Shown here one piece after another: positions 37,521 to 53,845 of a DNA stretch of 64,000 nt; the stretch's first letter is position 1; each line of letters opens with the position of its first letter. The notes under the pieces were generated by a model. That model did not search any database and had not been told where the DNA came from. It saw only the letters and a list, made by a program, of their open reading frames with translations. The DNA is from Alphaproteobacteria bacterium. GTDB lineage: Bacteria; Pseudomonadota; Alphaproteobacteria; Kiloniellales; DSM-21159. A program made the translations under genes and the position numbers. The DNA lies in contig JAUILQ010000008.1 in NCBI GenBank assembly GCA_030433005.1, positions 17,106 through 81,105 on the forward strand, in the 5' to 3' direction.

Positions 37521-38684
37521 TCAGCCCGCCTCGGGGTCCGGCGCGGGCGGGGCCGCCGGCTGCTCCAGCAGCTGCTGGGCGAAGCCGACGTAGAGCCCGG
37601 CCAGGCTGTCCCAGGACTTCGGCCCCAGCGCCGTCTCGACCGCGGCCTCGGAGCAGCGGCTGTAGAGCCGCGGCGACTCGATCAGCTCCATGACCGCCTG
37701 GGCGAAGGCCTCGCCGCTCAGCGCCTTGGCGACCACGCCGGTGCCGTAGCCGGCGATCTCCTCGGCCAGGCCGCCGACCGGCGTCGAGACCGCGGGCAGG
37801 GCGGCGAACTCGGCCGCCGCCAGGGCGCCCGACTGGCTGGCCTCGCGGTAGGGCAGCAGCAGCATGTCGGCCTCGGCCAGCATGTCGCCGATCTCCTCCT
37901 CGCCGATCCAGCGGTTCTCCCACTGCAGGCCCGGCAGGTTGCGCAGGCCGGCGCCGTAGAGGCTCTCGTCGCCGCGCCCGGCGATGTTGAGGCGCACCCG
38001 CGTGCCGTAGCGCCGGCGCAGCAGCTTGTAGGCGTCGGCCAGGATGTCGATGCCCTTGTACTCCAGCACCCGGCCGAAGAAGAGCAGCTCGATGGCGCGG
38101 TTCTCCGGCAGGCTGCGCACCGGATGCGGGGTTTCGCCGAAGGAGAAGCTGCCGTGCGGGATCACCGCGCTGCGCTCGGGCGGCAGGTCGGGCCGCCGGG
38201 CCTGGAGCTGGCCGGCGACGTGGTGGGTCAGCGCGATCAGCGCGTCGGCCTGGGCGATGTCGCGGGTGAGGGTCCAGCGCCTGAGCCGGCTGCTCTCGCC
38301 GGGATGCGGCTCGGCGTCGTGCGCGACCAGACAGTAGGGCAGGCCGGCGCGCTTCAGGGTCGGGGCCACGAAGGGCGACCAGAGATGGCTCATGGTCGAG
38401 ATCACCAGGTCGACCTGCTGCTCGCGCAGGAACTGCACGAAGCGCCGGCGCAGCAGCGGCAGGCGCAGGAAGCCGGCGGCGTAGCCGCGCGCGCTGCTGT
38501 AGGTGTCGACCTCGTAGGACGGCAGGCCGAGCTCGCGCATCGGCTCGGCGTAGTCGCTCTGCCGCGAGAAGCTGAGCGCCAGCTCGACGTCGTCGCGCCG
38601 CTGCAGCGCGCGCGCCAGCTCCCAGGTGTAGCGCGGGCCGCCGCCCTTGCGGTTCCAGTGCCAGAGCAGGATGCGCGGGGTCAT
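37521..38684 (-). CDS. Glycosyltransferase, GT-B fold, GT4-like
   Basis: C-terminal half has the EX7E-type region (LLLPYREASQSGALAAAEFAALPAVSTPVGGLAEEI). LLFFGRVLEYKGID. 4-nt overlap with the upstream gene. Confidence 0.88.
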   Translation of the reverse strand: MTPRILLWHWNRKGGGPRYTWELARALQRRDDVELALSFSRQSDYAEPMRELGLPSYEVDTYSSARGYAAGFLRLPLLRRRFVQFLREQQVDLVISTMSHLWSPFVAPTLKRAGLPYCLVAHDAEPHPGESSRLRRWTLTRDIAQADALIALTHHVAGQLQARRPDLPPERSAVIPHGSFSFGETPHPVRSLPENRAIELLFFGRVLEYKGIDILADAYKLLRRRYGTRVRLNIAGRGDESLYGAGLRNLPGLQWENRWIGEEEIGDMLAEADMLLLPYREASQSGALAAAEFAALPAVSTPVGGLAEEIAGYGTGVVAKALSGEAFAQAVMELIESPRLYSRCSEAAVETALGPKSWDSLAGLYVGFAQQLLEQPAAPPAPDPEAG

Positions 38685-40438
38685 CGCGCCTCCGCGGGCG
38701 CCCGGGTGGCGGCCTGGGGGGCGACGGGCTGCCGCTCGGCCGGGAAGACGAAGGGCCGGCGCTTGAGAATGCCGTCGCAGATCGTGTCGAGGCCGGGCGT
38801 GGCGCCGGGCCGCAGGGCGGCGAGCCCGTCGAGCCGGGGCCGGTAGGGCGGCCAGGCGCCGGTCGGTTCCATGAAGGGCAGGGGAATCATCCGTCGGAAG
38901 AAGAAGTGATAGGCGTAGCGCCGGGCGCGCGCCACCGTGTCGCCGTCGAGCCGCCGGCCGGCCGGCAGCTCGGCGAGCAGCTCGCGGTAGTGCGACGGAC
39001 TGGCGGCGTCGCGGGTCAGGCCCTTGTTGCGGATCCAGGCCTCGCCGGCAACGATCGTCGGTATGCCCATGGCCGTCAGCTCGACTCCCATCTTGGTGCC
39101 GTAGATCAACGCGCTGTCGCAGAGCTCCAGCAGGGCGTAGGTGCTAACCGGACTTTCTGGCGGGACGATGAAAACATTGCCGGGCAAACGGGGAAACCGC
39201 CTTGCGAGTTCGTCGGCGACACGCTCGCGCGAGGCCGGGGTGCCCTTGAGCTCGGCCGGGTGCACGCGGATCGCCAGCTGCAGGTCCGGCCGCTCGGCGA
39301 AGGCGCGGATGCTGTCCTCGACCCAGTCCATCATCGAGGCGAAGGCGTTGGCCGGATAGTGCAGCTGGGCGTCCCAGACGACGTTGGTCAGCAGCCCGAC
39401 GGTCGGCTTGCCGGGATCGAGCCCGAGCTGCCCGGCGATCCAGCCGCTCTCGAAGCGCGGCGCCTCGTGGAACCAGATCCAGTCGCCGGCGCCGGTCCAG
39501 CGGCTCTTCAGGTAGTCCAGGATCTCGGCCTCGCGGCCGGCCTCGAGCGGCAGCGCGTCCCAGGCCTCGGTCGGCTCGTCCATCAGCGTGTGGTGGTAGG
39601 TGTCGTCGTGGCTGAAGATGAAGCAGTGCCGGCGGTAGGCCGGGTTCCAGGTGACGACCTTGGCGCCGGCGGCGCGCGCGCCCAGCACCGCCGGCCCCTG
39701 GGGCACGTAGATGCCGTGATGGGCGACGACGATTTCGAAGCCCTGTTCGGCGACCAGGCGGCGCACCGCCAGGAAGGTCAGCAGCGCGGCGTGCAGGTAG
39801 CGGCGCAGCACCGCCTCGCCGCTCGGCTCGTCGTCGAGCGAGCCCTTGGCGAAGAAGCGCAGGGCGCCGGCCAGCGCCTGCTCGCCGAGCGGCGCGCCCT
39901 CGAAGCGCAGCGCCGGGATCTCGGCGGCCGGCGTCTCGGCGGCGAGGTCCGCGGCGCGGCCGCGGTCCTCGGCGGACAGCCACTGGCCGTAGGTAAGGAC
40001 CGGCAATCCGCTGGTCGCGAAGCCGTCGGCGGCGGGCGCGTAGCACTGTCCGCAGAGCTCCGAGGGGCCCTTGCGCACGAAGCGGCCGGGATCGGGGTAC
40101 CAGCCCGCCTCGGCCATCTGGCAGGCCGGCAGCGCCGAGTCGCACAGCAGGGTCGAGACGCGCGCGCCGCGCAGCGTCAGCGCGACGCCGAGCATCGAAT
40201 CGAAGCCGGCGAGGCCGAGGTGCCCGCCGATGCCGGTGGCGACCAGCACCTTCGGGCCGCCTGCCGACTCGCGGGCGGACTCCCAGGCCGGCCAGTCGTC
40301 GCCGAGCAGCGCGCGCCAGTCGGGGTGGCCGCCGTGCCGCGCGATGCGGCGCAGCCGCGCCATGCGTAGCGGCCGCACGACCGGCAGGCCGCGCAGCCGC
40401 GCCTTCAGGGCCTTTCGGAGCTCTCCCGCAACGGCCAT
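38681..40438 (-). CDS. Capsule polysaccharide biosynthesis-type protein (Capsule_synth / KpsC-KpsS-like fold suspected)
   Basis: 585 aa. IRVHPAE plus CDSALIYGTKMGVELTAMGIPTIVAGEAW resemble the HP and nucleotide-sugar-binding segments of KpsS/KpsC-type transferases. Basic N-terminus. Start ATG 40438. Confidence 0.6.
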   Translation of the reverse strand: MAVAGELRKALKARLRGLPVVRPLRMARLRRIARHGGHPDWRALLGDDWPAWESARESAGGPKVLVATGIGGHLGLAGFDSMLGVALTLRGARVSTLLCDSALPACQMAEAGWYPDPGRFVRKGPSELCGQCYAPAADGFATSGLPVLTYGQWLSAEDRGRAADLAAETPAAEIPALRFEGAPLGEQALAGALRFFAKGSLDDEPSGEAVLRRYLHAALLTFLAVRRLVAEQGFEIVVAHHGIYVPQGPAVLGARAAGAKVVTWNPAYRRHCFIFSHDDTYHHTLMDEPTEAWDALPLEAGREAEILDYLKSRWTGAGDWIWFHEAPRFESGWIAGQLGLDPGKPTVGLLTNVVWDAQLHYPANAFASMMDWVEDSIRAFAERPDLQLAIRVHPAELKGTPASRERVADELARRFPRLPGNVFIVPPESPVSTYALLELCDSALIYGTKMGVELTAMGIPTIVAGEAWIRNKGLTRDAASPSHYRELLAELPAGRRLDGDTVARARRYAYHFFFRRMIPLPFMEPTGAWPPYRPRLDGLAALRPGATPGLDTICDGILKRRPFVFPAERQPVAPQAATRAPAEAR

Positions 40439-40452
40439 CGCCGTCGCGGCCG

Positions 40453-42384
40453 CTAGTGCGACAGCGTGGCGGCGATGCCCGCGGCCAGGCTCTCGGCGTC
40501 GAGGCCGGCGTGCTTCAGCACGTCGGCGTGGGTGCCGGAGGCCGGCACCTCGGTGAGGCCGAAGCGCCGGGCCTTGAGGCCGCCCAGGCCCTGCTCGAAG
40601 GCCGCGGTCATGATGCGCTCGCCCTGGCCGCCGTCGAGGTAGTGGTTGTCGAGCGTGAAGAGCGCCGACTTGCCGGCCAGGGTCTTGGCCAGCCAGGCGC
40701 CGTCGACGCGGTTCAGCCAGGGCAGGTTGACGACCTCCAGTCCGATGCCGCGCTCCTTCAGCAGGTCGGCGGCGGCGCAGGCCTGGGCCAGCATGACCAT
40801 GCCGTAGGCGATGATCACCGCCTCGCCGTCGTGGCCGCCGACGCGCACGCCGTGGCCGAGCGAGGGCTTGTAGCCGGCCGGCAGCGAGAAGGGCAGCGGC
40901 CAGGGCACCGAGGTCATGCGGAAGTAGCTCGAGCCCTCGGTCTCCTCGACCGCCCAGTCGACCAGCGGGCCGACCTCCTCGGGGCAGGAGGGCTCGACGA
41001 TGGTCAGGCCGGGCATGCCGCCGACCGCGGCGATGTCGCGCACCGACTGGTGCGAGTGGCCCGGGCCGCCGGGGACCATGCCGGCCAGCCAGCCGACGTA
41101 GATGACCTTCGTGTGCTCGGTGGCGTTGTTGTAGATCTGCTCGTTCGGCCGGGTCGACAGGAAGCAGGCGAAGGAGTTGCAGACCGGGATCATGCCCTTC
41201 AGCGCCATGCCGCCGGCCTGGCTGACCATGTCCATCTCGGCGATGCCGCACTCGACCGTGCGCTCCGGGAAGCGCTCGCGGAAGGGGATCAGGCCGGTGT
41301 CGAGCAGCAGGTCGGCGTCGAGCGCGACCAGGTTGTCGTGGCGCTCGGCGGCCTTGATCAGCGCCTCGGTGTAGGCCGGCAGCAGCCGCTTGGTCTCGCC
41401 CGGCTGCGGTGCCGGCTTGTTCTGGACGGTCTCCAGCTCCAGCTTCTCGGCGCCGGCGGCGTCGAGCTGCGCGTTGATGCTGTCGATCAGCTCCTGCGCC
41501 GCCTTGGTGTACTGGTCGGCCTTGGGCGCGCCGGAATGGAAGGTGTACTGGGCGGCGTCCGACTCCATGGCGGTGTGCTCCATGAAGGAGACGCCCTTGC
41601 CCTTGATGGTGTCGCAGATGATGACCTGCGGCACCTCGGCCTTCTTGCAGCGCTCCAGCGCCGCGGCGAGCTGGCCGAGGTCGTGGCCGTCGATGCGCTC
41701 GACGTGCCAGCCGAAGGCGGCGAACTTGGCCGGCAGGTCGCCGAGGTCGCTGGTCTGGGTCAGCAGGTAGTCGGACTGCAGCTTGTTGTGGTCGACGACC
41801 ACGGTGATCTCGCTCAGCTTGTGGTTCGCCGCCGAGACCAGCGACTCCCAGATCTGGCCCTCCTGCAGCTCGCCGTCGCCGGTCATCACGTAGATCCGCG
41901 CGTCGATGCCGCGCCGGCGGTGCGCGAAGGCCATGCCCTTGGCCTTGGAGATGCCCATGCCGAGCGCGCCGGTGTTGGTCACCATGTTCGGCGTGCGCAC
42001 GTCGGGGTGGCCGGGCAGGCCGTCGACCTGGCGCAGCTTGTGGACGAACTCGGCCGGCAGCTTGCCGAGCGCGATCATCACGGCGTAGAGGCCGGGCGCG
42101 TCGTGGCCCTTGGACGAGAAGTAGAGGTCGCGGTTGCTGCCGTCGTCGTTGGCGCGCATGTCGTTGAGGTGCAGCCAGGAAACGATGTCCATCGACGAGA
42201 AGCTGGAGCCGATGTGGCCCGAGCCGGCGCGCGCGATCATGTAGAGCGCGTTGAGCCGGGCCATGTCCGAGAAGATGCGCGTGCGCACCGCCGGCTCGGC
42301 GTTGAGGCTGCGGATCCGGTCGAACTCCTTGGTCTCCGCGTAGTAAAGCGCGCCCTCGACGGCCTTGCCGATCAACTCACCCAC
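40453..42384 (-). CDS. Transketolase-family ThDP enzyme, N- and C-terminal halves fused (643 aa)
   Basis: GSGHIGSSFSSMDIVSWL, ThDP motif GDGELQEGQIWES, Pyr-domain CGIAEMDMVSQAGGMA, and a C-terminal transketolase domain. Confidence 0.88.
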   Translation of the reverse strand: MGELIGKAVEGALYYAETKEFDRIRSLNAEPAVRTRIFSDMARLNALYMIARAGSGHIGSSFSSMDIVSWLHLNDMRANDDGSNRDLYFSSKGHDAPGLYAVMIALGKLPAEFVHKLRQVDGLPGHPDVRTPNMVTNTGALGMGISKAKGMAFAHRRRGIDARIYVMTGDGELQEGQIWESLVSAANHKLSEITVVVDHNKLQSDYLLTQTSDLGDLPAKFAAFGWHVERIDGHDLGQLAAALERCKKAEVPQVIICDTIKGKGVSFMEHTAMESDAAQYTFHSGAPKADQYTKAAQELIDSINAQLDAAGAEKLELETVQNKPAPQPGETKRLLPAYTEALIKAAERHDNLVALDADLLLDTGLIPFRERFPERTVECGIAEMDMVSQAGGMALKGMIPVCNSFACFLSTRPNEQIYNNATEHTKVIYVGWLAGMVPGGPGHSHQSVRDIAAVGGMPGLTIVEPSCPEEVGPLVDWAVEETEGSSYFRMTSVPWPLPFSLPAGYKPSLGHGVRVGGHDGEAVIIAYGMVMLAQACAAADLLKERGIGLEVVNLPWLNRVDGAWLAKTLAGKSALFTLDNHYLDGGQGERIMTAAFEQGLGGLKARRFGLTEVPASGTHADVLKHAGLDAESLAAGIAATLSH

Positions 42385-42424
42385 GGTCTTCGCTCCCTCG
42401 TTCTGTCAGGTCCGGGCAGGGTCC

Positions 42425-43186
42425 TCAGGACCCTGCCCAGGGCTCCACGGCGACCGGCGGCAGCGTCGCCTGGCCCTCGGCCAGCAGGTGCTGCGCGTAC
42501 CACCAGTCTTCCATGTCGTTGATGTCGAAGCCCTCCATCGCGTCGGTCAGGAAGGGCATCAGGACGGTGCCCGCGATCGTGCCGCCCTCCAGGGCGACCC
42601 GGGTCCAGGCGATCTCCAGGCTGGCGTTCTGCACGTGGACCGTCGGCAGGCTGGCCATCTGGCTGGAGTGCCAGGGCGTCTCGCCTTCCTTGGTCAGCGG
42701 CATCAGAGGGTACATGCGGCGGCCGCGCACGACCCACATCTTGCCGGGGTGCTGGCGGACCTTCTCGACCGCGCGCAGGGAATCGACGCCCTCCTCGGCC
42801 AGGAACTCCTGCCAGGCGCGCCGGATCGTCTCCGGCTGGCGGAACGGGCTGGTCGGCCGCAGGATCGAGAAGGCGTCGCGGCCGCGGCCCTGCTCGGACA
42901 GCATCTTCAGGGTGTAGACGATCCACTCGATGTCGGGCGAGGTCGAGGAGGCGAACTCCGCCGGCCGCAGGCCCGGCACCTCGGCGCCGTAGTGGCGGGC
43001 GATCTCGGCGTAGGCCTCGCTGTCGGTCGAGACCAGCACCTCGGAGAAGACGCCGGACTCGATCGCGGCGCGGATCGTGTAGGCCATGACCGGGTGGTCG
43101 CCGAGGCGCCGGATGTTCTTGTCGGCGACCCGCTTGGAGCCTGAGCGGGCCGGGATCAGCGCGACGCAGCGGGGGGTGTCGGTCAT
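42425..43186 (-). CDS. Acylneuraminate cytidylyltransferase-family CMP-ulosonic acid synthetase (NeuA/CTP_transf_3)
   Basis: ALIPARSGSKRVADKNIRRLGDHPVMAYTI is the canonical NeuA/KdsB-like N-terminus. 253 aa. Confidence 0.85.
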   Translation of the reverse strand: MTDTPRCVALIPARSGSKRVADKNIRRLGDHPVMAYTIRAAIESGVFSEVLVSTDSEAYAEIARHYGAEVPGLRPAEFASSTSPDIEWIVYTLKMLSEQGRGRDAFSILRPTSPFRQPETIRRAWQEFLAEEGVDSLRAVEKVRQHPGKMWVVRGRRMYPLMPLTKEGETPWHSSQMASLPTVHVQNASLEIAWTRVALEGGTIAGTVLMPFLTDAMEGFDINDMEDWWYAQHLLAEGQATLPPVAVEPWAGS

Positions 43187-43204
43187 GGCGGCGCGGGCGA
43201 GGTT

Positions 43205-44659
43205 CTAGAGCTTGGCGGGATCGACGTTGAGGTAGATGTCCTTGAGCTCGCTGTAGACGTCCAGCGCCTCGGTGCCCGGCTCGCGGCTGCCGTTGCCCGA
43301 CTGCTTGGGGCCGCCGAAGGGCATGTGCGGCTCCGAGCCGTAGGTGCCGGCATTGACCACCGTGGCGCCGGCCTGGACCGCGTGGCTGAACGCCAGGGCG
43401 CGGTCGACGCTGCGCGTGTGGATGCAGGCGGTCAGGCCGTAGGGGTGGTTGTTCGCCGCCGCCAGGGCGTGGGCGAAGTCGCGCACCCGGTAGAGGCAGG
43501 CGACCGGGCCGAACAGCTCGACCTGGGAGATCTCGTCGTCGGGGGCGGCGCCCTCGACCACGGTCGGCGCCAGGTAGCAGCCCTTGTCGCCGACCCGCTT
43601 TCCGCCGGTCAGCACCTTGGCGCCCTTCTTGGCGGCCCGGTCGATGGCGCCCAGCATGTTGCCGAGCTGGCGCTCGTTGATCACCGGGCCGAGGTCGCAG
43701 TCCTCCTCGACGCCCAGCTTCTGCTGCTCGGTCGCCGCGACCAGCTTGTCGCGGAAGGCCTCGTAGACGCTCTCGAAGACCAGGAAGCGGCTGCCGGCGG
43801 CGCAGCGCTGGCCGGCGTTCGAATAGGCCGACAGGCAGGCCCACTTGACCGCGTGGTCGATGTCGGCGTCGTCGCAGACCACGAAGGGGTTCTTGCCGCC
43901 GAGCTCGAGCGACAGCTTCTTGAGCTGCCGGCCGCAGGACTCGGCGATGCGCCGGCCGACCGCGGTCGAGCCGGTGAACGACAGGACGTCGACGCCCGGG
44001 TGGTCGACCAGCGGCTGGCCGGCCTCTGCGCCCAGGCCGTGGACGACGTTGAGCACGCCCCTGGGCAGCCCGGCCTCCTCGGCGATCTTAGCCATCAGCC
44101 AGGCCGAGACCGGCGTGTCCTCGGCCGACTTCAGCACCACGCCGTTGCCGCAGATCAGCGCCGGGAAGACCTTCCAGGCGAAGTTCGGGGCGGGCGTGTT
44201 GGCGGCGATGATCAGGCCGGCGACGCCGCAGGGCTGGCGCACCGTCATGTTGTACTTGTTGGGCGTGCCGCTCGGCATGGTGCGGCCGAACAGGCGCTGG
44301 CCCTCGCCGGCGAAGAAGCGGCCGCACTGGATGGCGCCGCCGACCTCGCCCTTGGAGTCCTTCAGGCGCTTGCCGGCCTCGGCCGCGACCGCCGCGGCGA
44401 TCTCGTCGGCGCGCGCCTCCAGGGCGTTCATCACCTGGTGCAGGATGTGGCCGCGCTGCACGGCCGGCATCGCCGCCCAGGCCGGCTGCGCCGCGCGCGC
44501 CGCGGCGACCGCCTCGGAGACGTCGTGCGCCTCGGAGGCGGCGACCTGGCAGATCTCGCTGCCGTCGTGAGGATTGACGTTGGCGAAGCTGCGGCCGCTC
44601 TCGGCCGGCCGCTCTTCGCCACCGATCAGGTTCGGCAGGATCGAAGGCAGGTCGGTCAT
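43205..44659 (-). CDS. NAD(P)+-dependent aldehyde dehydrogenase
   Basis: Catalytic Glu and Cys contexts (LELGGKNP, GQRCAAGSR), FTGSTAVGR. 484 aa. Confidence 0.9.
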   Translation of the reverse strand: MTDLPSILPNLIGGEERPAESGRSFANVNPHDGSEICQVAASEAHDVSEAVAAARAAQPAWAAMPAVQRGHILHQVMNALEARADEIAAAVAAEAGKRLKDSKGEVGGAIQCGRFFAGEGQRLFGRTMPSGTPNKYNMTVRQPCGVAGLIIAANTPAPNFAWKVFPALICGNGVVLKSAEDTPVSAWLMAKIAEEAGLPRGVLNVVHGLGAEAGQPLVDHPGVDVLSFTGSTAVGRRIAESCGRQLKKLSLELGGKNPFVVCDDADIDHAVKWACLSAYSNAGQRCAAGSRFLVFESVYEAFRDKLVAATEQQKLGVEEDCDLGPVINERQLGNMLGAIDRAAKKGAKVLTGGKRVGDKGCYLAPTVVEGAAPDDEISQVELFGPVACLYRVRDFAHALAAANNHPYGLTACIHTRSVDRALAFSHAVQAGATVVNAGTYGSEPHMPFGGPKQSGNGSREPGTEALDVYSELKDIYLNVDPAKL

Positions 44660-44782
44660 GTCGGGTCGATGGCCTTGCTGGGGCTGGTCGGGAAAGGGCG
44701 GGAGTCGCTTCCGGAGGGCCTCAGGAAGGTGCCGCTCGCACGCTCGGGCAGGGCTTCCGGAGGCCGGGACCGCGGGCGGCCG

Positions 44783-45610
44783 CTACCAGGCCGTGAAACC
44801 GCCGTCGATCGTGAGATTGGCCCCGGTCATATAGCCCGAGGCCTTGGACATCAAGAAGATAATCGTGCCGTTGTAGTCGCCCTCGTCGGCCATCCGGCCG
44901 AGCGGCACCTTGGCGCAGTAGCGGTCCAGGAAGGCCGCGTCCTGGTTGTTGAAGACGCCGGCGAAGGTCACCGTGTTGACCCGCACGCCCTTCGGTCCCC
45001 AGTAGGTCGCGAGGTAGCGCGTCAGGTTGTAGAGCGAGGACTTGCTGGCGGAGTAGGCGACCGGCTTGAAGAAGGTCTCGCCGCGCTGGCGACGGTACTC
45101 GTAGAGGTTCTGGTCGGGCGAGACCAGGCCGTAGATCGAGGCGACGTTGACGATTGAGCCGCCGCCGGCCTCGGCCATGGCGCCGCCGAACACCTGGCAG
45201 CACAGGAAGGGGCCCTTGGCGTTGACCTCCATGACCTTGTCCCAGGAGGACTCGGGATAGGTCTCGAAGGGACCGGTCTCCTCGGCCGGCGAATCGGGGG
45301 GCGAGTCGAGCGCGGCGTTGTTGACCAGGCCGCTCGGGGTGGCCCAGCGCTCGGCGATGTGCCGGCGCGCCGCCTCCAGCGAGGCGCGGTCGGTAACGTC
45401 GGCGCCGACGAACAGCAGGTTCGGGTCCTCGGCCTGGTCGCCGAAGCGCTTGCGCACCAGCTCGGCGTCGAGCTCGAGGCCCGGGCCGCGGTCGAGCACC
45501 GCGACGCGCGCGCCGTGGGCGAGCAGCGCCAGGCTGAACTGCCGGCCGAGCTGGCCGAGGCCGCCGGTGACGACCACGACGTGGCCGTCGAGATCGAAGA
45601 GTCCGCTCAT
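44783..45610 (-). CDS. Classical short-chain dehydrogenase/reductase (SDR)
   Basis: VVVVTGGLGQLG cofactor motif, NNAA, catalytic YSASK. 275 aa. Confidence 0.9.
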   Translation of the reverse strand: MSGLFDLDGHVVVVTGGLGQLGRQFSLALLAHGARVAVLDRGPGLELDAELVRKRFGDQAEDPNLLFVGADVTDRASLEAARRHIAERWATPSGLVNNAALDSPPDSPAEETGPFETYPESSWDKVMEVNAKGPFLCCQVFGGAMAEAGGGSIVNVASIYGLVSPDQNLYEYRRQRGETFFKPVAYSASKSSLYNLTRYLATYWGPKGVRVNTVTFAGVFNNQDAAFLDRYCAKVPLGRMADEGDYNGTIIFLMSKASGYMTGANLTIDGGFTAW

Positions 45611-45649
45611 GCTTGCACCTTCTCCAGGGCTTCGAAGGACGGGCTGCCG

Positions 45650-46201
45650 TCAGGGATAGCGCGGCTCGACACCGCGCGCCGCGCCGATCGCGTCGCAGAC
45701 CTCGCGCACCGCGCCGTGGCCGCCGGTGCGGCGGGTCAGCCAGCGCACGTAGGGATGGATGTCCTCGTGGGCGTCGGCGACGCCGAGCGGCAGGCCGACC
45801 GCCTGCAGCAGCGGGATGTCGTTGACGTCGTTGCCGACGAAGCCGCAGTCGGCCAGCGCCAGGCCGCGCTCGGCGGCGACCTCGCGGGCCGCGGCGATCT
45901 TGTCGGACAGGCCCTGGCGGCAGCCGATCTTGAGCTTGCCGGCGCGCGCGGTGACCACAGGGTTGACCTCGGTCGAGAGGATGAAGCCCTCGACGCCGGC
46001 GCGCTCCAGCCGGCGCAGGCCGATGCCGTCGAAGCGGCTGGCGCGCACCGCCTCGCGGCCGTCCTCGAAGACGAAGACCGCGTTGTCGGTGAACACGCCG
46101 TCGAAGTCGAAGAACAGGAGGCGGATCGGCGCCTGCTGCTCGGCGAAGCGGGGGTCGGCCGGATCGATGGCGGCGGGAGGCGCCGAGGACATGGCGGGCA
46201 T
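45650..46201 (-). CDS. HAD-IIIA phosphatase, KdsC family (ulosonate-phosphate phosphatase type)
   Basis: IRLLFFDFDGVFTDN (DxD motif), RDG-type segment FDGIGLRRL, GNDVNDIPLLQAVG. Capless C0 size of 183 aa. Confidence 0.85.
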   Translation of the reverse strand: MPAMSSAPPAAIDPADPRFAEQQAPIRLLFFDFDGVFTDNAVFVFEDGREAVRASRFDGIGLRRLERAGVEGFILSTEVNPVVTARAGKLKIGCRQGLSDKIAAAREVAAERGLALADCGFVGNDVNDIPLLQAVGLPLGVADAHEDIHPYVRWLTRRTGGHGAVREVCDAIGAARGVEPRYP

Positions 46202-46274
46202 CGGGTCCCTGGGATGAGCGGCGACGCGAGGAATCGGAAGAGTGGCCGCCCCGGCTCGGGACGGGGCCGGCGCC

Positions 46275-46304
46275 CTTATAGGTCAGGGCCGAGCGCGCTG
46301 TCAT
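46275..46304 (-). promoter_or_regulatory. Candidate sigma70-type promoter of the KdsC-SDR-ALDH-NeuA-transketolase operon
   Basis: Minus strand reads ATGACA - 18 nt - TATAAG, about 75 nt upstream of the KdsC-like start. The -10 part belongs to a 15-mer repeated at 53802-53816. Confidence 0.3.
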
Positions 46305-46352
46305 CCCCGCCGGCCGCGCCGACGAGGCCGGGTACCGACCCGGGGCGAGGAC

Positions 46353-46378
46353 GCGCGGCGACAACGCGCGGCGACAAC
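46353..46378. repeat. Perfect 13-bp tandem duplication gcgcggcgacaac x2 in the divergent intergenic region
   Basis: Read directly. Confidence 0.9.
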
Positions 46379-46643
46379 TCGGGGGGCGACCTGCAGGCTG
46401 CCTCGGAAACCCGCAGAACGGGTGCGTGGTGCGGGCGTCGGGAAGTGTATTTTGGATTAGTGCAAGATTAGGTCGCCGCGAGTAAGCGATTTCTTGCCCG
46501 GAAAAACTCATTCTCGAATCGGATCTTCCGAAAGTCGGGATCGCTTGACTGTCTGGCGGCCACAGATAGCATGCGAATGTCTGTGCAGGATAGAAACGCA
46601 AGCAACGATCTGCCGGCGGACCAGGGGCGGGGGGCAGAAGAGA

Positions 46644-48332
46644 ATGAAACACAAGCTGTCGTGGGGCGCCTGCGCCCTGGTCGCCGCGGGCTGCGTCGCG
46701 ACGCCGGCGGCCGCGCAGAACTTCGACACGATCCTGAGCATCTTCAGCCTCGGGCAGTTCCTTTCGAACGACAATCCCGAGGCCAACTTCGATCCGGACG
46801 GCGGCGACAGCTCGACGACCGGCACCTTCAACGGCCAGAGGATCACGATCACGGCGACCGACGGCACGACGCTCGACCAGGTGCCCGGCCGCCAGTCGAT
46901 CCGCCTGACGGTCAACGGCGACGCGGTCACGATCACCACCGACGCCTCAAGCTTCGGGGCGACCGGCTCGGGCTCGACGACGACCATCGAGGGCAACTTG
47001 CAGGGCGTCTCGATCGACGCCTCGGTCCAGGGCAACCTGCAGAGCATCCCGGATTCCTCGCGGATCTCGGGCACGCTCAACGGCGAGTCGATCGTCATCG
47101 AGCTGCCCTCCGGCGTCACCTTCCGCCAGCTGCAGCCCGGCAACACCCAGGTCGACCTGACGGTCGACGGCGAGTACCTCGGCGAGTTCTCGATCTTCGT
47201 GAACGACGAGCTGGTGTTCAGCGGCACGGTCGCGGAGCTCGAGGGCGACGCCATGACCGCCCTGCGCCTGGTCAGCGTGCTCAACCTGCTCAATCCGGTG
47301 ACCAACCTCAGCTACGAGGCCCAGCAGGTGCAGACCGGCCTGGTCCTGCAGTCGGTCAGCGAGCGCATCGCGACGGTCTTCGGCGCGCCGGGCGGAAGCG
47401 CGCTGCTGCCCAGCTTCGAGGCGGCAAGCCTCGGCCTGCGCCCGGACGAGCCGACGCAGCTCGCCATGGACCGGGACCGCTCGCTGACCGATCTCGGGAC
47501 CTTCGTCTCCGCCGTCGCCCAGTCGGCGAACGGCGAGCGCGTCGGCGACCGCCGCGCCTCCTTCGGGCTGTGGGCCGACTTCGCCTACACGGCCTTCGAG
47601 AACGGCAACGACCGCTACCGCTCGGACGGCGACATCTACGGCTTCCGGGTCGGCGGCGACGCGCTGCTCCAGCGCCGCTACCTCGTCGGCCTGGCTCTGG
47701 GCTTCGACCGCCTGCAGTCGGACGCCGGCGTCTCGAACCGCGGCCACCTGGAGCTCGACGCCTTCAACGTCTCGCCCTACGCCGCGGTCTCGCTGTTCGA
47801 CGGGCTGCTGGTCTCGGAGCTGGTGCTCAACTACGCCCGGCTCGACGTCTCGACGATCACCGGCCGCGGCCTCGCGACGCGCGCGGACGGCGAGACCCAG
47901 GGCGACAGCTACTCCGGGCGCCTGGGCGCGACGGTCAACCATGCGGTGCTCGACGGCTCGGTCCTGCTCAGCGGCATCGTCGGCCTGCAGGGCGGCTACC
48001 AGTCGATCGACGGCTTCACCGACAGCCGCGGCATCGAGATCGACCGCAGCCAGACGCCGATGGCAGAGGCCGATGTCGGCGCGCGGGCGAGCGCCCGCCT
48101 GCTGCCGTCGCTCGCGGTCTCCGGCCGCGCCGCCTACGTCTTCGACTTCAGCGACAGCTTCGACGACAGCCCCTACCTCGCCGAGCTCAGCGAGAACTAC
48201 GTCGAGCTCGGCGGCGGCGTGACCTGGAGCCCGCTGCCGGCGGCCTCGCTCGGCGCCGGCGGCTCGGTCAAGCTCGGCCTCGACGACCGCGAGGAGTACA
48301 CCCTGCGGCTCGACGCCAGCTACCGCTTCTAG
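46644..48332 (+). CDS. Autotransporter (type Va) outer-membrane protein with short passenger domain
   Basis: Signal peptide (ACALVAAGCVATPAAAQ). Repetitive beta-rich passenger (ITITATDG, VTITTDAS). C-terminal ~280 aa alternating beta-barrel pattern ending in YTLRLDASYRF. Confidence 0.85.
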   Translation: MKHKLSWGACALVAAGCVATPAAAQNFDTILSIFSLGQFLSNDNPEANFDPDGGDSSTTGTFNGQRITITATDGTTLDQVPGRQSIRLTVNGDAVTITTDASSFGATGSGSTTTIEGNLQGVSIDASVQGNLQSIPDSSRISGTLNGESIVIELPSGVTFRQLQPGNTQVDLTVDGEYLGEFSIFVNDELVFSGTVAELEGDAMTALRLVSVLNLLNPVTNLSYEAQQVQTGLVLQSVSERIATVFGAPGGSALLPSFEAASLGLRPDEPTQLAMDRDRSLTDLGTFVSAVAQSANGERVGDRRASFGLWADFAYTAFENGNDRYRSDGDIYGFRVGGDALLQRRYLVGLALGFDRLQSDAGVSNRGHLELDAFNVSPYAAVSLFDGLLVSELVLNYARLDVSTITGRGLATRADGETQGDSYSGRLGATVNHAVLDGSVLLSGIVGLQGGYQSIDGFTDSRGIEIDRSQTPMAEADVGARASARLLPSLAVSGRAAYVFDFSDSFDDSPYLAELSENYVELGGGVTWSPLPAASLGAGGSVKLGLDDREEYTLRLDASYRF

Positions 48333-48346
48333 GGTCCGGACCCTAG
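48329..48346. terminator. Perfect 18-bp palindrome CTAGGGTCC|GGACCCTAG between convergent autotransporter and mmuM genes; possible bidirectional hairpin
   Basis: Read directly. It includes the TAG stop of the autotransporter gene. No U-tract. Confidence 0.3.
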
Positions 48347-48352
48347 GCTGCG

Positions 48353-49276
48353 TCAAACCCGCGCGAAGGCGCGGGCGAGCTCGGCGATGTGCGCCGAGCC
48401 GATGCCGCAGCAGCCGCCGAGAATGCTCGCGCCGCCGGCGTGCCACTGCCGGGCGTAGGCCGCGTAGCGCTCGGGCGTCAGCTCCTCGCGCAGCGGATCC
48501 AGACCCGCGTTGGCCCGGCCAGGCGTGCGCTTCGGCACGAAGGCATTGGCGTAGACGCCGATCGGCAGCCGTCGGCCCGCCGCCTCGAAGGCGGCGACGG
48601 CCTGGCGGACCGCGCGCTCCATGACCTCGGGGCGGCTGCAGTTGAACAGCAGCGCCTCGACGCTGGCCGAGAGCGCCCAGTCCGCCGCCTGCTCGATGGT
48701 CTCGCCCGAGCGCAGGCGCGCCTCCGGGGCCGCCAGCGCCGCCTCGCCGTCATCGAGCGAAAAGGCGATCCAGAGCGGCCGTGGCGCGGCGCGGACCGTT
48801 TCGGCGACGGCCTCGGCCTCGGCGATCAGGCTCAGCGTCTCGCCGAGCCAGAGGTCCACCGAGGGCGCCAGCGCCTCGACCAGGACCGAGAGGATCGCCT
48901 GCGCCCGGCCGGTCTCGAAACCCGCAGGATCGTAGGCCCCGAAGGGCGGCGGCAGGCAGCCGGCGACGCGCACCGGCCGTCCGCTCGCCGTGTCGGCGGC
49001 CCGGCGGGCCAGCTCGCCGGACAGGCGGGCGAGAGCGGCACCGCTTTCGCGGAAGCGCGCCTCGCCGATGTGGAAGGGCACCAGCGCGAAGCTGTTGGTG
49101 GTGATCACCTCGGCGCCGGCCTCGACGAAGGCGCGGTGCGCGCGTTCCACGATCTCCGGCGTCTCGAGCAGCGCCAGCGCCGACCACTCCGGCTGGCGCA
49201 GCGGGGCGCCCAGGCGGGTCAGCTCGCGGCTCATGCCGCCGTCGAGAAGGATCGGGGAGGGGCGGGTCGTGGGCAT
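48353..49276 (-). CDS. mmuM: Homocysteine S-methyltransferase
   Basis: ILLDGGMSRELTRLG N-terminus, ITTNSF, and C-terminal zinc-site GGCCGIGSAHI. Confidence 0.88.
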   Translation of the reverse strand: MPTTRPSPILLDGGMSRELTRLGAPLRQPEWSALALLETPEIVERAHRAFVEAGAEVITTNSFALVPFHIGEARFRESGAALARLSGELARRAADTASGRPVRVAGCLPPPFGAYDPAGFETGRAQAILSVLVEALAPSVDLWLGETLSLIAEAEAVAETVRAAPRPLWIAFSLDDGEAALAAPEARLRSGETIEQAADWALSASVEALLFNCSRPEVMERAVRQAVAAFEAAGRRLPIGVYANAFVPKRTPGRANAGLDPLREELTPERYAAYARQWHAGGASILGGCCGIGSAHIAELARAFARV

Positions 49277-49302
49277 GGCGAAGCCGGGCTCTGGAACGGC
49301 AA

Positions 49303-49330
49303 CGGCCGGGCCCCGTTCGGGACCCGGCCG
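49303..49330 (-). terminator. Imperfect GC hairpin downstream of the NeuB-like gene
   Basis: cggccgggccccg / tt / cgggacccggccg (one mismatch), 31 nt after the stop at 49361. Weak T-rich run follows on the minus strand (ttgccgtt). Confidence 0.4.
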
Positions 49331-49360
49331 GTCGCTAGGTCGCGGCGAGGCGGTCTCGGC

Positions 49361-50410
49361 TCAGTCGAGGTCCTCGAAGGCGTAGTTCTCGTCTTCCTTG
49401 AGGGCGCGCTTCAGCTTGCGCCCGACGACCTTGTCGAACTCGTAGGGCGGCACGCCGTCGTTCGGCACCTTGATCGCGATGTCGTCGGCGGTGATCGTGT
49501 GGCCGGCCGGCAGGTCGCGCGCCGCGACCAGCTTCTTGGCCATCTTGAACAGCGGCTTGGCCTCGCTCGGGTAGGCGCGCTTCTTGCCGTCGCCCAGCGC
49601 CGTGCGGGTGCGCTCGAGGTCGCGGATCATCTTGCGCAGGCCGGTCGGCTCCAGCGAGAAGGCCTGGTCCGTGCCCTTCCAGGCGCGGTTCAGGGTGAAG
49701 TGCTTCTCGATCATCCGGGCGCCCAGCATGTAGGCGACCAGCGGCATGGCGATGCCGTTGTCGTGGGCCGAGAAGCCGATGACGATGTCGGGGAAGGCCT
49801 CGCGGAAGGTCTCGATGACCTTGAGGTTCAGCTCCGACCACTCCGGCGGATAGCCGCTGGTGCACTGCATGATGCAGACGTTCGGGTTGATCGGCATGAC
49901 CGCGTCGTAGGCGCGCTGGGCGTCTTCCATCGTGCCGCCGCCGGTCGAGAGGACCATCGGCTTGCCGATCTCGGCGACGTACTTGATCAGGGGGATGTTG
50001 GTCAGATCGCCCGAGGCGATCTTGTAGGCCGGCATGTCGAGCTCGGCCAGGAAGTCGGCGCTCTTGTGGTCGAAGGCCGTGGAGAAGAAGGTGATGCCGA
50101 GCTCCTTGGCGGTCGCCTGAAGCTCCTTGTAGGCGTCACGGCCGAACTCCAGGAACTCGCGGTGGGCGCCGTAGGTGTCCGCGTAGGCGTTCTCGCTGTT
50201 GTACGGGCTGTCGTACATCTCCTTGGTGAAGAGCGCACGGTTGTCGCGCTTCTGCAGCTTGACCGCCTGGGCGCCGCACTCCGCCGCCGCCCTGAACATC
50301 TCCTTGCACTTCTCCAGGTCGCCCTGGTGGTTGTGCCCGATCTCGGCGATCACGTAGGCATCGCTGTCGTCGGAGATCTCGATACCGTCAATCGTGAGCG
50401 TACGCGCCAT
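49361..50410 (-). CDS. neuB: NeuB-family ulosonic acid (phosphate) synthase with SAF domain; closer to the NANS / KDN-9-P synthase type than to classical bacterial NeuB
   Basis: VIAEIGHNHQGDLEKCKEM, KLQKRD...YDSPYNSENAYADTYGAHREFLEF, WKGTDQAFSLEP, and a C-terminal SAF-like domain. Start ATG 50410. Confidence 0.88.
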   Translation of the reverse strand: MARTLTIDGIEISDDSDAYVIAEIGHNHQGDLEKCKEMFRAAAECGAQAVKLQKRDNRALFTKEMYDSPYNSENAYADTYGAHREFLEFGRDAYKELQATAKELGITFFSTAFDHKSADFLAELDMPAYKIASGDLTNIPLIKYVAEIGKPMVLSTGGGTMEDAQRAYDAVMPINPNVCIMQCTSGYPPEWSELNLKVIETFREAFPDIVIGFSAHDNGIAMPLVAYMLGARMIEKHFTLNRAWKGTDQAFSLEPTGLRKMIRDLERTRTALGDGKKRAYPSEAKPLFKMAKKLVAARDLPAGHTITADDIAIKVPNDGVPPYEFDKVVGRKLKRALKEDENYAFEDLD

Positions 50411-50556
50411 CGTGGATCCGATCGGTGACTTGGAGGATTGGGGGGTGCCGGAGTCGGGCATCGGCTGGGGCCCTTCTGACGTCGCTGGGGTAGTGGCTTG
50501 GCGCCGGCTTGTCCACAGAATTTGTCGGCGGACGGCTGCGGCACTTTCCCGGGGTT

Positions 50557-51659
<1,103 letters not shown>

Positions 51660-51668
<9 letters not shown>

Positions 51669-52598
51669 AATGTCCTCGCGCCCGCGCAGCATCTCGACCA
51701 GCGGCTGCCAGCCGCGGCCCTCGGCGACCGCCCGTCCGCGCTCGGCGATGCCCTCGAGCGTCGCCTTGTCGAGCGGCAGCTCGCCGTGGCACTGGCGGAT
51801 GTCGACCAGGCTGTCGAGGTGCACGAAGTCGTGCGGCGAGTGCTCGTCGAGGTTGGTCAGCACTACCGCGCCGCACTGCATGGCGGTGTTGACCGAGGTG
51901 TTGTTGGCGCGCACGCCGCTGCCGAAGAAGGCCGCGAAGAAGGTGCAGCGCCGCAGGTAGTTGTAGAGCCCGGTGTCCGAGATGAAGCCGAGGAAGAAGA
52001 TCTTGTCGCCGAAGACCCGCTTCAGCTCCTCGTAGGCCGAGGTGAAGGAGTCGTCGAGGCTCTTGCCCTCGTGGATCGCCGCCGAGATGTAGAGGCAGTA
52101 GGACTTGCCGGTCGCCTCCAGCAGGTCGTGCAGCTCGTAGTAGTAGTCGGCGCGCACCTTGTGCGCCATGCCGAAGGTGTAGATCGAGATCTCGACGTCC
52201 TCGGGGAAGGGCACGGCATCGAACAGGTAGCCCGGGCACCAGGCCTCGACGACGTCGTCGTGCAGCGCCTCCAGCTCCTGGGCCAGCGCCTCGTTGCCGC
52301 AGTAGACCGTGCTGGCGCGGCGCAGCAGCTTGGCCTCGACCGGAGTCGCCGAGTAGTCGTGGAAGAACAGCCGCGGCTCGACCTGCGGGCCCCAGCCGTC
52401 GACCAGCGCCTCGAGGCGCTCGGCGTCGCCCTCGGCGAACTCGGAGAGCTTGAGCGACAGCAGCGGCCTGCGGCAGCGCGCCGCCTCCTCGGTGAACAGC
52501 TGGTGCATCGGCAGGCGGAGCTGATCGGCGAGCGCGCGGTTGAAGCGCGCGACGCCGCAGGTCAGCGGGTTCATGTGGTAGCTGAGAATCGAGTCCAT
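51660..52598 (-). CDS. Hypothetical protein, compact divergent GT-B/GT4-like glycosyltransferase suspected
   Basis: N-terminal NPLTCGVARFNRALADQL resembles the GGxxxxxxxLAxxL start of GT4 enzymes. The C-terminal FFAAFFGSGVRANNTSVNTAMQCGAVVLTN resembles the sugar-donor binding half. No firm family. Confidence 0.45.
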
Positions 52599-52614
52599 GT
52601 CGTGCGCGCCCCGC

Positions 52615-53724: not shown

Positions 53725-53845
53725 GAAGTCACTCCGAACGGGAAGCCGCGCCAGGATTCGGCGCGAGAACGGCGGCGCAGGGTGCAGCTGCGAAAAGACA
53801 GCGGCGCCCTTATAGGAAAAAGCACCGGCCCGCGCCACCCGTCCG

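Follow-up and report, generated by a model that had tools for sequence, protein, structure and literature searches.

What are a transketolase, an aldehyde dehydrogenase (ALDH) and an SDR doing in an operon for activation of an ulosonic acid? The question is raised by a locus in the window analyzed here (64,000 nucleotides of contig JAUILQ010000008.1 from an alphaproteobacterium), where five intact ORFs at 40453-46201 on the minus strand encode a KdsC-like phosphatase, an SDR, an ALDH, a NeuA-type cytidylyltransferase and a fused transketolase, with a NeuB-type synthase encoded upstream and a KpsS/Capsule_synth-type transferase downstream. The third-position GC content of the five ORFs (0.92-0.99) is as expected of coding sequence in this genome, and the gene calls of the initial annotation agree with our ORFs, domains and coordinates. 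The genes are separated by 40 nt (transketolase/NeuA), 18 nt (NeuA/ALDH), 123 nt (ALDH/SDR) and 39 nt (SDR/KdsC), and the 123-nt gap contains no terminator-like site. The initial annotation had stated that no established ulosonic-acid pathway uses a transketolase or an ALDH, and this holds, also with the SDR included: our literature search found no paper with this combination and none describing the cassette, which is apparently new to the literature.

The genes form a real conserved set, in which a sialic-acid/Kdn-type pathway is combined with the SDR, the ALDH and a remodelled transketolase. The transketolase family is a single clade (SH-aLRT 100) spanning 13 phyla, with ulosonate context in all its major subclades. 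Among 38 well-flanked family loci, also from 13 phyla, the SDR is found in 33, NeuB and NeuA in 29 each and the ALDH in 27, with all four together in 22, while none of these genes occurs at 18 control loci with ordinary split transketolases. The gene order recurs unchanged in loci from 13 phyla, which is far beyond chance. The neighbourhood comparison that had been proposed as a check thus finds transketolase, ALDH and SDR syntenic with NeuA, KdsC and NeuB in many genomes, which speaks clearly for a real module. There is also a second architecture, in which the SDR, transketolase and ALDH genes are contiguous and paired with much more divergent NeuB and NeuA; here the trio retains 45-50% identity and NeuB/NeuA 30-38%, and this better conservation of the trio suggests a tailoring unit that acts on the ulosonate. 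Within the order the cassette occurs in 4 of 127 genomes, a scattered distribution of the kind that surface-glycan loci typically show. The ALDH is not always part of the set: some cassettes, in Chloroflexota (L050 and L063) and Rokubacteria (L019), are complete but for this gene, and no substitute for it was seen beside the two Chloroflexota cassettes, hence the oxidation step is not shared by all of them. In Myxococcota, some genes of the transketolase family lack ulosonate genes in their neighbourhood.

The ulosonate core comprises three enzymes. The NeuB-family PEP-condensing synthase (49361..50461, minus strand) combines a NeuB domain (Pfam, 264 bits) with a SAF domain; it scores 295 bits against NCBIfam NeuB_NnaB, under the 400-bit cut-off, and its orthologues, with 52-78% identity, head the cassette in other phyla. 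It would make the C9 ulosonate, probably as the 9-phosphate. The KdsC/YrbI-type HAD phosphatase (45650..46201, minus strand) exhibits the HAD motif FDFDGVFTD and matches the NCBIfam models of KdsC (105 bits), the YrbI family (104 bits, cut-off 107) and KDN-9-P phosphatase (86 bits); it is predicted to dephosphorylate the ulosonate 9-phosphate, and it is encoded in the cassette at 12 of the 62 loci of the family, among them the two Chloroflexota cassettes L050 and L063. The NeuA/PseF-family CMP-ulosonate synthetase (42425..43186, minus strand), present at 45 of the 62 loci, matches Pfam CTP_transf_3 with 71 bits, has PseF as its best NCBIfam match (125 bits, under the 206-bit cut-off) and carries the motif IPARSGSKRVADKN. 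The Capsule_synth (KpsS/KpsC/LipB-like) protein (38681..40438, minus strand), whose ATG lies 14 nt past the transketolase stop, shows a weak Pfam Capsule_synth match and an Atlas feature search value of 0.99 to Capsule_synth/KpsS clusters. In Tistlia consotensis and Rhizobium laguerreae, too, this gene comes directly after that of the transketolase, and the protein is probably a glycosyltransferase that uses the CMP-sugar.

The fused transketolase-like ThDP enzyme (40453..42384, minus strand) contains Transketolase_N, Transket_pyr and Transketolase_C in one short chain of 643 aa. It scores under all NCBIfam transketolase and DXS cut-offs, among solved structures human TKT comes closest to it (229 bits), and it is an extra paralogue, as a canonical transketolase is encoded elsewhere in the same genome. 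The catalytic motifs that had been described as intact are indeed present in all three additional enzymes, here as TGDGELQEG, in the ALDH as ELGGK and GQRC, and in the SDR as YSASK. Residues H57, H94, H126, D170, N200, H283, E383 and H445 are invariant in all 54 family sequences, and since they include the His residues that hold the donor C1-OH, the ketol chemistry appears to be retained. On the other hand, the phosphate binders of the E. coli enzyme, R358, S385, H461 and R520, are replaced in 54 of 54 sequences by V/I/L, D, L/Y and S/N/I/T, respectively, and D469, which reads the C4-OH, is replaced by P, again in every sequence, which argues against an ordinary sugar phosphate as the substrate. 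In a pyranose ulosonate the position of the donor C4-OH would be taken by the C6 oxygen, i.e. the ring oxygen, which would fit the loss of the Asp. The family has acquired new invariant residues (D362, H/K443 and R449). The residues now found at the phosphate site are hydrophobic or acidic rather than basic, so by themselves they do not point to a carboxylate substrate. The enzyme is predicted to cleave the C7-C8 bond of an 8-oxo-ulosonate.

The classical SDR (44783..45610, minus strand; Pfam adh_short_C2, 142 bits) is found near the family transketolase at 49 of 62 loci. In addition to YSASK it has the glycine-rich motif VTGGLGQLG, and the catalytic Ser and Tyr are spaced by 26-27 residues throughout its family. 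Its best NCBIfam matches are gluconate 5-dehydrogenase, D-mannonate oxidoreductase, GolD/DthD and KduD, and the nearest named relatives act on sugar acids or polyols, which they oxidise at the penultimate carbon; we predict an 8-dehydrogenase that would turn the glycerol-like tail into a terminal ketol. The NAD(P)-dependent aldehyde dehydrogenase (43205..44659, minus strand; Pfam Aldedh, 525 bits), encoded at 43 of the 62 loci, is most similar in NCBIfam to alpha-ketoglutaric semialdehyde dehydrogenase (417 bits) and 2,5-dioxovalerate dehydrogenase (396 bits), and also resembles lactaldehyde/glycolaldehyde dehydrogenases (~316 bits). Its nearest named relatives convert keto-acid semialdehydes into diacids, and its predicted role is to turn the C7 aldehyde that the cleavage leaves behind into a carboxylate. 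For both enzymes, however, the matches to named families are far under the curated cut-offs and hence weak guides to the substrate.

Taken together, these predictions suggest a pathway leading to a CMP-activated, two-carbon-shortened, doubly acidic ulosonic acid for a surface glycan, a proposal based on sequence analysis whose probability we put at about one half. The genes with their families and intact catalytic motifs, their co-location across phyla and the remodelled site of the transketolase are observed; which substrate is used, in what order the steps run, which way the transketolase works and what product results are inferred. The NeuB-type synthase would condense PEP with a hexose 6-phosphate (in the simplest case mannose 6-phosphate) to Kdn 9-phosphate, from which the KdsC-type phosphatase would liberate the C9 hydroxyl. 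The SDR would then oxidise the penultimate C8-OH to yield HOCH2-CO-CHOH at the chain end, a ketol whose 3S,4R configuration is that of a transketolase donor; penultimate-carbon oxidation of a D-gluco- or D-manno-derived chain gives precisely such a ketol, of the L-sorbose type. The transketolase-like enzyme would cut between C7 and C8, so that C8-C9 leave as a glycolaldehyde unit and a C7 aldehyde remains on the pyranose ring, and the ALDH would convert this aldehyde to the second carboxylate of a 3-deoxy-hept-2-ulosaric acid, which with Kdn as precursor would have the L-arabino configuration. Finally, the NeuA-type enzyme would form the CMP-sugar, to be installed by the adjoining KpsS-like transferase. 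There is a chemical precedent: transketolase cleaves 5-keto-D-gluconate, and a semialdehyde dehydrogenase converts the C4 aldehyde to tartrate, a route proposed earlier (PMC7970118) and reconstituted in vitro (PMC13527115). By parsimony, this oxidise-cleave-oxidise scheme is the sole ordering we found that gives a role to all six conserved genes. It is counted against it that the two-carbon unit has no evident acceptor and that KdsC is encoded at just 12 loci. The initial annotation had suggested oxidation or reduction of the ulosonic acid to a non-canonical sugar acid; the direction of that idea stands, but it was incomplete, and shortening of the tail by oxidation, cleavage and oxidation fits best.

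Cleavage might instead come early, with the SDR and transketolase acting before NeuB on a free sugar acid, e.g. a C5-oxidised hexonate, and NeuB joining the four-carbon aldehyde-acid to PEP to give the heptulosaric acid directly. Such an order shares the 5-ketogluconate precedent (PMC13527115) and agrees with the named families closest to the SDR (gluconate 5-dehydrogenase and mannonate oxidoreductase), with the missing phosphate site of the transketolase and with the lack of an encoded phosphatase in most cassettes. However, neither the ALDH nor the KdsC-type phosphatase would have a function in it, and the latter is kept in the Chloroflexota cassettes, where it has no other obvious use if, as expected, no Kdo is made; we regard early cleavage as unlikely. 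One of the two possibilities named in the initial annotation was the opposite direction, in which the transketolase adds a two-carbon ketol to make an unusual aldose(-phosphate) acceptor for NeuB; in a variant, an oxidised ulosonate would be extended by the ketol and the new ketone reduced by the SDR. Transketolases do work in both directions, and the His residues that bind the donor are intact, but loss of the four phosphate binders in all 54 sequences disfavours sugar-phosphate substrates, and there is no place for the widespread ALDH, which is effectively irreversible towards the acid, so that chain building seems quite improbable.

Still less probable is that the transketolase-like enzyme supplies a glycolaldehyde or glycolyl unit, converted by the ALDH to glycolate, for decoration of an ordinary nonulosonic acid, e.g. 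by O-glycolylation. ThDP enzymes of the same fold provide glycolyl units in some natural-product pathways, and the ALDH's likeness to lactaldehyde/glycolaldehyde dehydrogenases would suit this role, but no acyltransferase, carrier protein or ligase is conserved alongside the cassette and the SDR has no clear role. As the family names are generic, the three enzymes could also be of central metabolism and sit in a glycan locus by accident, but this is hardly credible given the same order in 13 phyla, the lack of these genes at all control loci, the separate canonical transketolase, the remodelled substrate site and a patchy presence typical of surface-glycan loci; for practical purposes, the synteny data refute chance adjacency.

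Compared with canonical transketolases (E. coli TktA, yeast TKL1, human TKT and the split bacterial enzymes), the cluster enzyme shares the three-domain fold, the GDG...N ThDP/Mg motif, the cofactor-activating Glu and the catalytic His residues, and human TKT is its best solved match over the full length, but the phosphate binders and the hydroxyl-reading Asp are replaced and the scores fall below the curated cut-offs. Tailoring of an ulosonic acid at its tail end after synthesis, via an aldehyde intermediate, is known from Shewanella Kdo8N, where KdnB oxidises C8 of Kdo and KdnA transaminates the product; that route, however, involves neither C-C cleavage nor a ThDP enzyme, and employs a metal-dependent alcohol dehydrogenase and an aminotransferase instead of an SDR, a transketolase and an ALDH. 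The enzyme classes of the trio match those of the route from 5-keto-D-gluconate to L-tartrate, i.e. gluconate 5-dehydrogenase, transketolase and succinate/tartrate semialdehyde dehydrogenase (PMC13527115, PMC7970118), and the proposed logic is alike: a ketol is made on a sugar acid, two carbons are removed by a ThDP enzyme and the aldehyde becomes a second carboxylate. The tartrate route, however, leads to a metabolite, and in it a free C6 acid is cleaved by promiscuous housekeeping transketolases, whereas the cassette has a dedicated, remodelled paralogue in a nucleotide-sugar operon, which would act on a C9 pyranose ulosonate.

The predicted product belongs to the same compound class, 3-deoxy-heptulosaric acids, as Dha (3-deoxy-D-lyxo-hept-2-ulosaric acid) of plant rhamnogalacturonan II, prasinophyte thecae and Rhizobiaceae LPS, whose biosynthetic enzymes are still unknown (PMC12168206, PMC3355719). 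On stereochemical grounds, the C4 configuration set by a NeuB-type synthase is the opposite of that in Kdo and Dha, and the product would be L-arabino if derived from Kdn or L-lyxo if derived from glucose 6-phosphate; as neither is D-lyxo, identity with Dha is not supported. The Kdn/sialic acid 9-phosphate route, represented by Kdn-9-P synthase, Kdn-9-P phosphatase and CMP-Kdn synthetase of Bacteroides thetaiotaomicron and by vertebrate NANS/NANP/CMAS, runs through the same three enzyme types in the same logical succession as the cassette: first a NeuB-family synthase, then a HAD phosphatase of the KdsC family and last a CTP_transf_3 cytidylyltransferase. The cassette differs in that none of its core proteins reaches an NCBIfam equivalog cut-off and in that its operon includes three extra conserved enzymes, the SDR, the transketolase-like enzyme and the ALDH; its predicted product is a C7 diacid instead of a C9 mono-acid and, if the pathway is true, would be a new doubly acidic surface sugar.

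The gene run on the minus strand of the window, which has a GC content of about 72%, was called from frame-specific GC3 together with Pfam and NCBIfam matches. It comprises a NeuB-family synthase with NeuB and SAF domains (49361-50461), a KdsC/YrbI-type HAD phosphatase (45650-46201), a classical SDR (44783-45610), an aldehyde dehydrogenase (ALDH; 43205-44659), a NeuA/PseF-family cytidylyltransferase (42425-43186), a fused transketolase of 643 aa (40453-42384) and a Capsule_synth/KpsS-like protein (38681-40438), whose ATG lies 14 nt past the transketolase stop. The five genes described in the initial annotation (40453-46201) are present as it stated, separated by gaps of 40, 18, 123 and 39 nt, and no terminator-like site was found in the 123-nt gap between the SDR and ALDH genes. 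The motifs on which it had relied were likewise all recovered: GDGELQEG in the transketolase, ELGGK and GQRC in the ALDH, YSASK in the SDR, DxDG in the HAD phosphatase and IPARSGSK in the NeuA-type enzyme. In the window the NeuB and phosphatase genes are about 3.1 kb apart, and the stretch between them (46202-49360) harbours a plus-strand ORF of 612 aa that has no Pfam match (46494-48332) and a minus-strand homocysteine S-methyltransferase gene (48353-49276). In Tistlia consotensis (locus L086) the same pair is only 626 nt apart, with no gene called between, so that the cassette of the window seems to have been interrupted by an insertion here.

A scan in which each species was represented by a single genome yielded 80 loci, on all of which the proteins of the window were mapped with tblastn and phmmer. 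A member of the family of fused, remodelled transketolases to which the enzyme from the window belongs (henceforth the TK family) was found in 62 of them, and ordinary split transketolases (29-36% identity) in the other 18, which were used as controls. Among the 38 TK-family loci with at least 5 kb of upstream and at least 3 kb of downstream sequence, the SDR was present in 33, NeuB and the NeuA-type enzyme in 29 each, ALDH in 27 and KdsC in 8, with NeuB, SDR, ALDH and NeuA all together in 22; not one of these genes was found at any control locus. Gene adjacency in the cassette exceeds chance. The KdsC gene is its least constant part, being present in only 12 of all 62 TK-family loci, and some cassettes that are complete in other respects, in Chloroflexota and in one Rokubacterium, lack ALDH; no reductase or aminotransferase gene that might substitute for ALDH was found adjacent to the two ALDH-less Chloroflexota cassettes.

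In a maximum-likelihood tree the TK family forms one clade (SH-aLRT 100), separated by a long branch from the split transketolases and represented in 13 phyla: Pseudomonadota, Thermodesulfobacteriota, Planctomycetota, Actinomycetota, Acidobacteriota, Rokubacteria, Gemmatimonadota, Bdellovibrionota, Chloroflexota, Melainabacteria, Saccharimonadota, Cyanobacteriota and Myxococcota. The ulosonate gene context is present in each major subclade, in two architectures. One, found in the window, is NeuB-(KdsC)-SDR-ALDH-NeuA-TK; the other combines a contiguous SDR-TK-ALDH block with far more divergent NeuB and NeuA (30-38% identity, as compared to 45-50% for the trio), which suggests that the three enzymes work on the ulosonate as a unit. 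Within the order of the host the TK gene was found in only 4 of 127 genomes and 3 of 47 genera, a patchy spread that is typical of surface-glycan loci. A Myxococcota subclade of the TK family (L003, L009, L011, L015 and L013) has no ulosonate genes nearby and polyphosphate kinase genes beside it (PPK2 in L003, PPK1 in L013), and may represent a second use of the enzyme; in L013 a gene of the fatty-acid-hydroxylase family lies between NeuB and TK.

The transketolase-like enzyme exhibits the three-domain architecture in one chain, with Pfam scores of 113 bits for Transketolase_N, 93 for Transket_pyr and 62 for Transketolase_C. It remains under all transketolase and DXS cut-offs of NCBIfam, the best match being NF004559 (375 bits, cut-off 488); the DXS model TIGR00204 gives 155 bits (cut-off 466) and TIGR00232 139 (cut-off 682). 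Among solved structures human TKT comes closest (229 bits, full-length alignment). The enzyme shares 91% identity with that from T. consotensis and 81% with that from a Roseospira MAG, which marks the host as an alphaproteobacterium of the Rhodospirillales. A canonical transketolase is encoded on another contig of the same genome (Transketolase_N 463 bits), and the enzyme of the cluster is therefore an extra paralogue.

For the comparison of residues, 54 members of the TK family were aligned with the 18 split transketolases and with the canonical enzyme of the same genome. H57, H94, H126, H283 and H445, for which the catalytic histidines of E. coli transketolase are H26, H66, H100, H261 and H473, are invariant in all 54 sequences, and so are D170 and N200 of the GDG...N ThDP/Mg2+ motif and the cofactor-activating E383. 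All five substrate-binding positions, whose roles we take to be established from yeast and E. coli structures, are substituted in each of the 54. Among the phosphate-binding residues, R358 of the E. coli enzyme (human R318) is replaced by V/I/L335, S385 (human S345) by D362, H461 (human H416) by L/Y433 and R520 (human R474) by S/N/I/T492, and D469 (human D424), which reads a substrate hydroxyl, is replaced by P441. The canonical transketolase of the genome and most of the 18 split enzymes keep R, S, H, R and D, and a few depart from this at single sites. Nearby, the TK family has acquired conserved residues of its own, H/K443 and R449, the latter in 51 of 54 members, where canonical enzymes have Glu. 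Because the catalytic residues are invariant and the five binders are replaced, we infer that the family retains ketol-transfer chemistry and would be unable to bind common sugar phosphates as canonical transketolases do. The proposal of the initial annotation that the transketolase builds an aldose-phosphate acceptor for NeuB is thus disfavoured by the loss of the phosphate site in all 54 sequences. A DXS-like reaction (acetyl transfer from pyruvate) was also considered and set aside, as the enzyme scores far higher with transketolase models than with those of DXS and has retained the two His residues by which the C1 hydroxyl of the donor is held.

The remaining enzymes can be placed in families, the phosphatase tentatively, and their scores stay short of any particular substrate. 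The NeuB synthase has both domains of its family (PF03102, 264 bits; C-terminal SAF domain PF08666, 44 bits), reaches 295 bits with the NeuB_NnaB model (cut-off 400) and 249 with PseI (cut-off 340), and its nearest solved structures score only 140-153 bits. The phosphatase carries the HAD motif I FDFDGV and scores 104.2 against the subfamily model TIGR01670 (cut-off 106.95), 105 against the KdsC equivalog (cut-off 208) and 86 against that of KDN-9-P phosphatase (cut-off 180). The NeuA-type enzyme is a CTP_transf_3 member (PF02348, 71 bits vs cut-off 22.6), in which the N-terminal nucleotide-binding motif (IPARxGSKxxxxKN) reads IPARSGSKRVADKN from residue 11; it reaches no sugar-specific equivalog, scoring 125 bits with PseF (cut-off 206) and at most 40 with the KdsB models. 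The ALDH (PF00171, 525 bits), with its catalytic Glu motif ELGGK at residue 252 and Cys motif GQRC at residue 283, has no equivalog-level match, the best being GucD (417 vs cut-off 770), and returned no match from the PDB at the overly strict threshold of 1e-100. The SDR contains, besides YSASK, the glycine-rich NAD(P) motif VTGGLGQLG. In classical SDRs the catalytic Ser precedes the Tyr of YxxxK by about 12 residues; in 36 of the 39 scorable members of the cassette family the spacing is 26-27, which points to a conserved insertion of ~14 residues in the substrate-binding region. The nearest named relatives of the SDR in NCBIfam are gluconate 5-dehydrogenase, mannonate oxidoreductase, KduD and GolD/DthD, which oxidize the penultimate carbon of sugar acids or polyols, and those of the ALDH are enzymes turning keto-acid semialdehydes into diacids; every one of these matches is below its cut-off and gives weak guidance.

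Taken as a whole, the genes of the cassette very probably serve a single conserved pathway, which leads to a modified CMP-ulosonic acid. The interpretation given in the initial annotation is partly supported: the module it recognized stands, and acceptor building is disfavoured by the replaced phosphate site. For the pathway itself we propose a model, to which we give roughly even chances, in which the tail of a C9 ulosonate is trimmed. The order of steps was chosen because each conserved gene then has a job: NeuB would form a C9 ulosonate 9-phosphate, the phosphatase would free the C9 hydroxyl, the SDR would oxidize C8, the transketolase-like enzyme would cut the C7-C8 bond, ALDH would oxidize the resulting C7 aldehyde, and the product would be activated by NeuA and transferred by the KpsS-like enzyme. 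The SDR and ALDH steps are weakly supported by the reactions of the nearest named relatives. Oxidation of the penultimate carbon in a D-mannose- or D-glucose-derived chain yields an L-sorbose-type 3S,4R ketol, i.e. the configuration of a transketolase donor. In the pyranose form the 'C4 oxygen' of the donor would be the ring oxygen, consistent with the lost hydroxyl-reading Asp. Several points speak against the model: ALDH and KdsC are not constant parts of the cassette, Myxococcota members of the TK family occur away from ulosonate genes, and there is no evident acceptor to take up the two-carbon unit. With Kdn as precursor, the pathway would yield 3-deoxy-L-arabino-hept-2-ulosaric acid; formation of an L-lyxo product starting from glucose 6-phosphate is a speculation. 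NeuC, aminotransferase and dehydratase genes, which mark the Neu5Ac, Leg and Pse pathways, were not found in the examined flanks of SDR-TK-ALDH loci.

The loci of cultured carriers were examined via the TK proteins of T. consotensis and Rhizobium laguerreae. Both carry the cassette. In R. laguerreae it forms part of an O-antigen locus of the ABC-transporter type, which encodes Wzm and a Wzt with a Wzt_C domain, and here too the KpsS-like gene comes next. One may speculate, from the example of beta-Kdo caps, that the C-terminal domain of Wzt recognizes the sugar as a terminal cap. Several methyltransferase genes and genes for rhamnose and GDP-sugars also lie in the R. laguerreae locus (L084/L085, ~5.7-14 kb). 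A gene for GDP-mannose 4,6-dehydratase, at 50557-51588 in the window, is often found less than 10 kb from the cassette, in about ten related loci (among them L005, L008, L014, L018, L026, L029, L039, L055 and L057), and thereby hints at a 6-deoxyhexose in the same glycan. Two further genes accompany the cassette in loci from Vicinamibacterales and Alphaproteobacteria (51660-53838 in the window; L014, L027, L028, L045 and L068): one encodes an RfaE-domain-II-like nucleotidyltransferase fused to a methyltransferase (52615-53838), the other an unnamed 312-aa protein of an uncharacterized family (51660-52598), for which a language-model search gave a weak lead to GT4-like glycosyltransferases. In a Xanthobacteraceae locus (L006, 7457-9992) the NeuA-like gene and TK are separated by two inserted genes, one for an aldolase of the DHDPS/N-acetylneuraminate-lyase family and one for a Capsule_synth-like protein, and L010 has a similar layout.

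The cassette is a real and conserved variant of the Kdn/sialic-acid-type pathway with a dedicated transketolase-like enzyme devoid of the phosphate site. It has apparently not been described before, as a literature search found no paper on it. More tentatively, and with the balance slightly against it, it may be both the first known route to a 3-deoxy-heptulosaric (Dha-type) sugar and the first case of ThDP-dependent, transketolase-like C-C cleavage tailoring a sialic-acid-like sugar, by which a C9 ulosonate would become a C7 diacid that a KpsS-like transferase would install after CMP activation. To our knowledge, all routes described for sialic-acid-like sugars stop at the product of PEP condensation or at simple N- or O-modifications, and we know of no enzyme for any ulosaric acid. 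If the proposal is true, nucleotide-sugar biosynthesis would include a new type of step, chain cutting by a repurposed transketolase, the ThDP enzymes would gain in the TK family a new functional subfamily without a phosphate site, and an undescribed acidic surface sugar would be predicted in more than 12 phyla, including many uncultured soil and water lineages. Sialic-acid-like sugars shape the recognition of bacterial surfaces by hosts, phages and the immune system. The cassette could then also account for the heptulosaric acid reported from Rhizobiaceae lipopolysaccharide, provide a template for locating the Dha pathway of plants and algae and, as a worked example of an ulosaric acid, make the question of Dha biosynthesis testable. 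Its occurrence in cultured R. laguerreae and T. consotensis makes genetics and glycan chemistry feasible and the proposal directly testable.

With regard to known systems, the cassette shares its three core enzymes with the 9-phosphate route to Kdn and sialic acid, although none of the three in the window reaches an equivalog cut-off. Its predicted product belongs to the same compound class as 3-deoxy-D-lyxo-hept-2-ulosaric acid (Dha). NeuB-type synthases set C4 opposite to Kdo-type synthases, and identity of the product with the D-lyxo Dha of plants and rhizobia was therefore rejected on stereochemical grounds. The enzymes of Dha biosynthesis are still listed as unknown (PMC12168206, a review from 2025; PMC3355719). 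The tailoring trio, finally, would mirror the conversion of 5-ketogluconate to tartrate, a precedent that lends support to the proposed model: transketolase splits 5-keto-D-gluconate, and a semialdehyde dehydrogenase turns the aldehyde into tartrate. This route had been proposed (PMC7970118) before it was reconstituted in vitro (PMC13527115).
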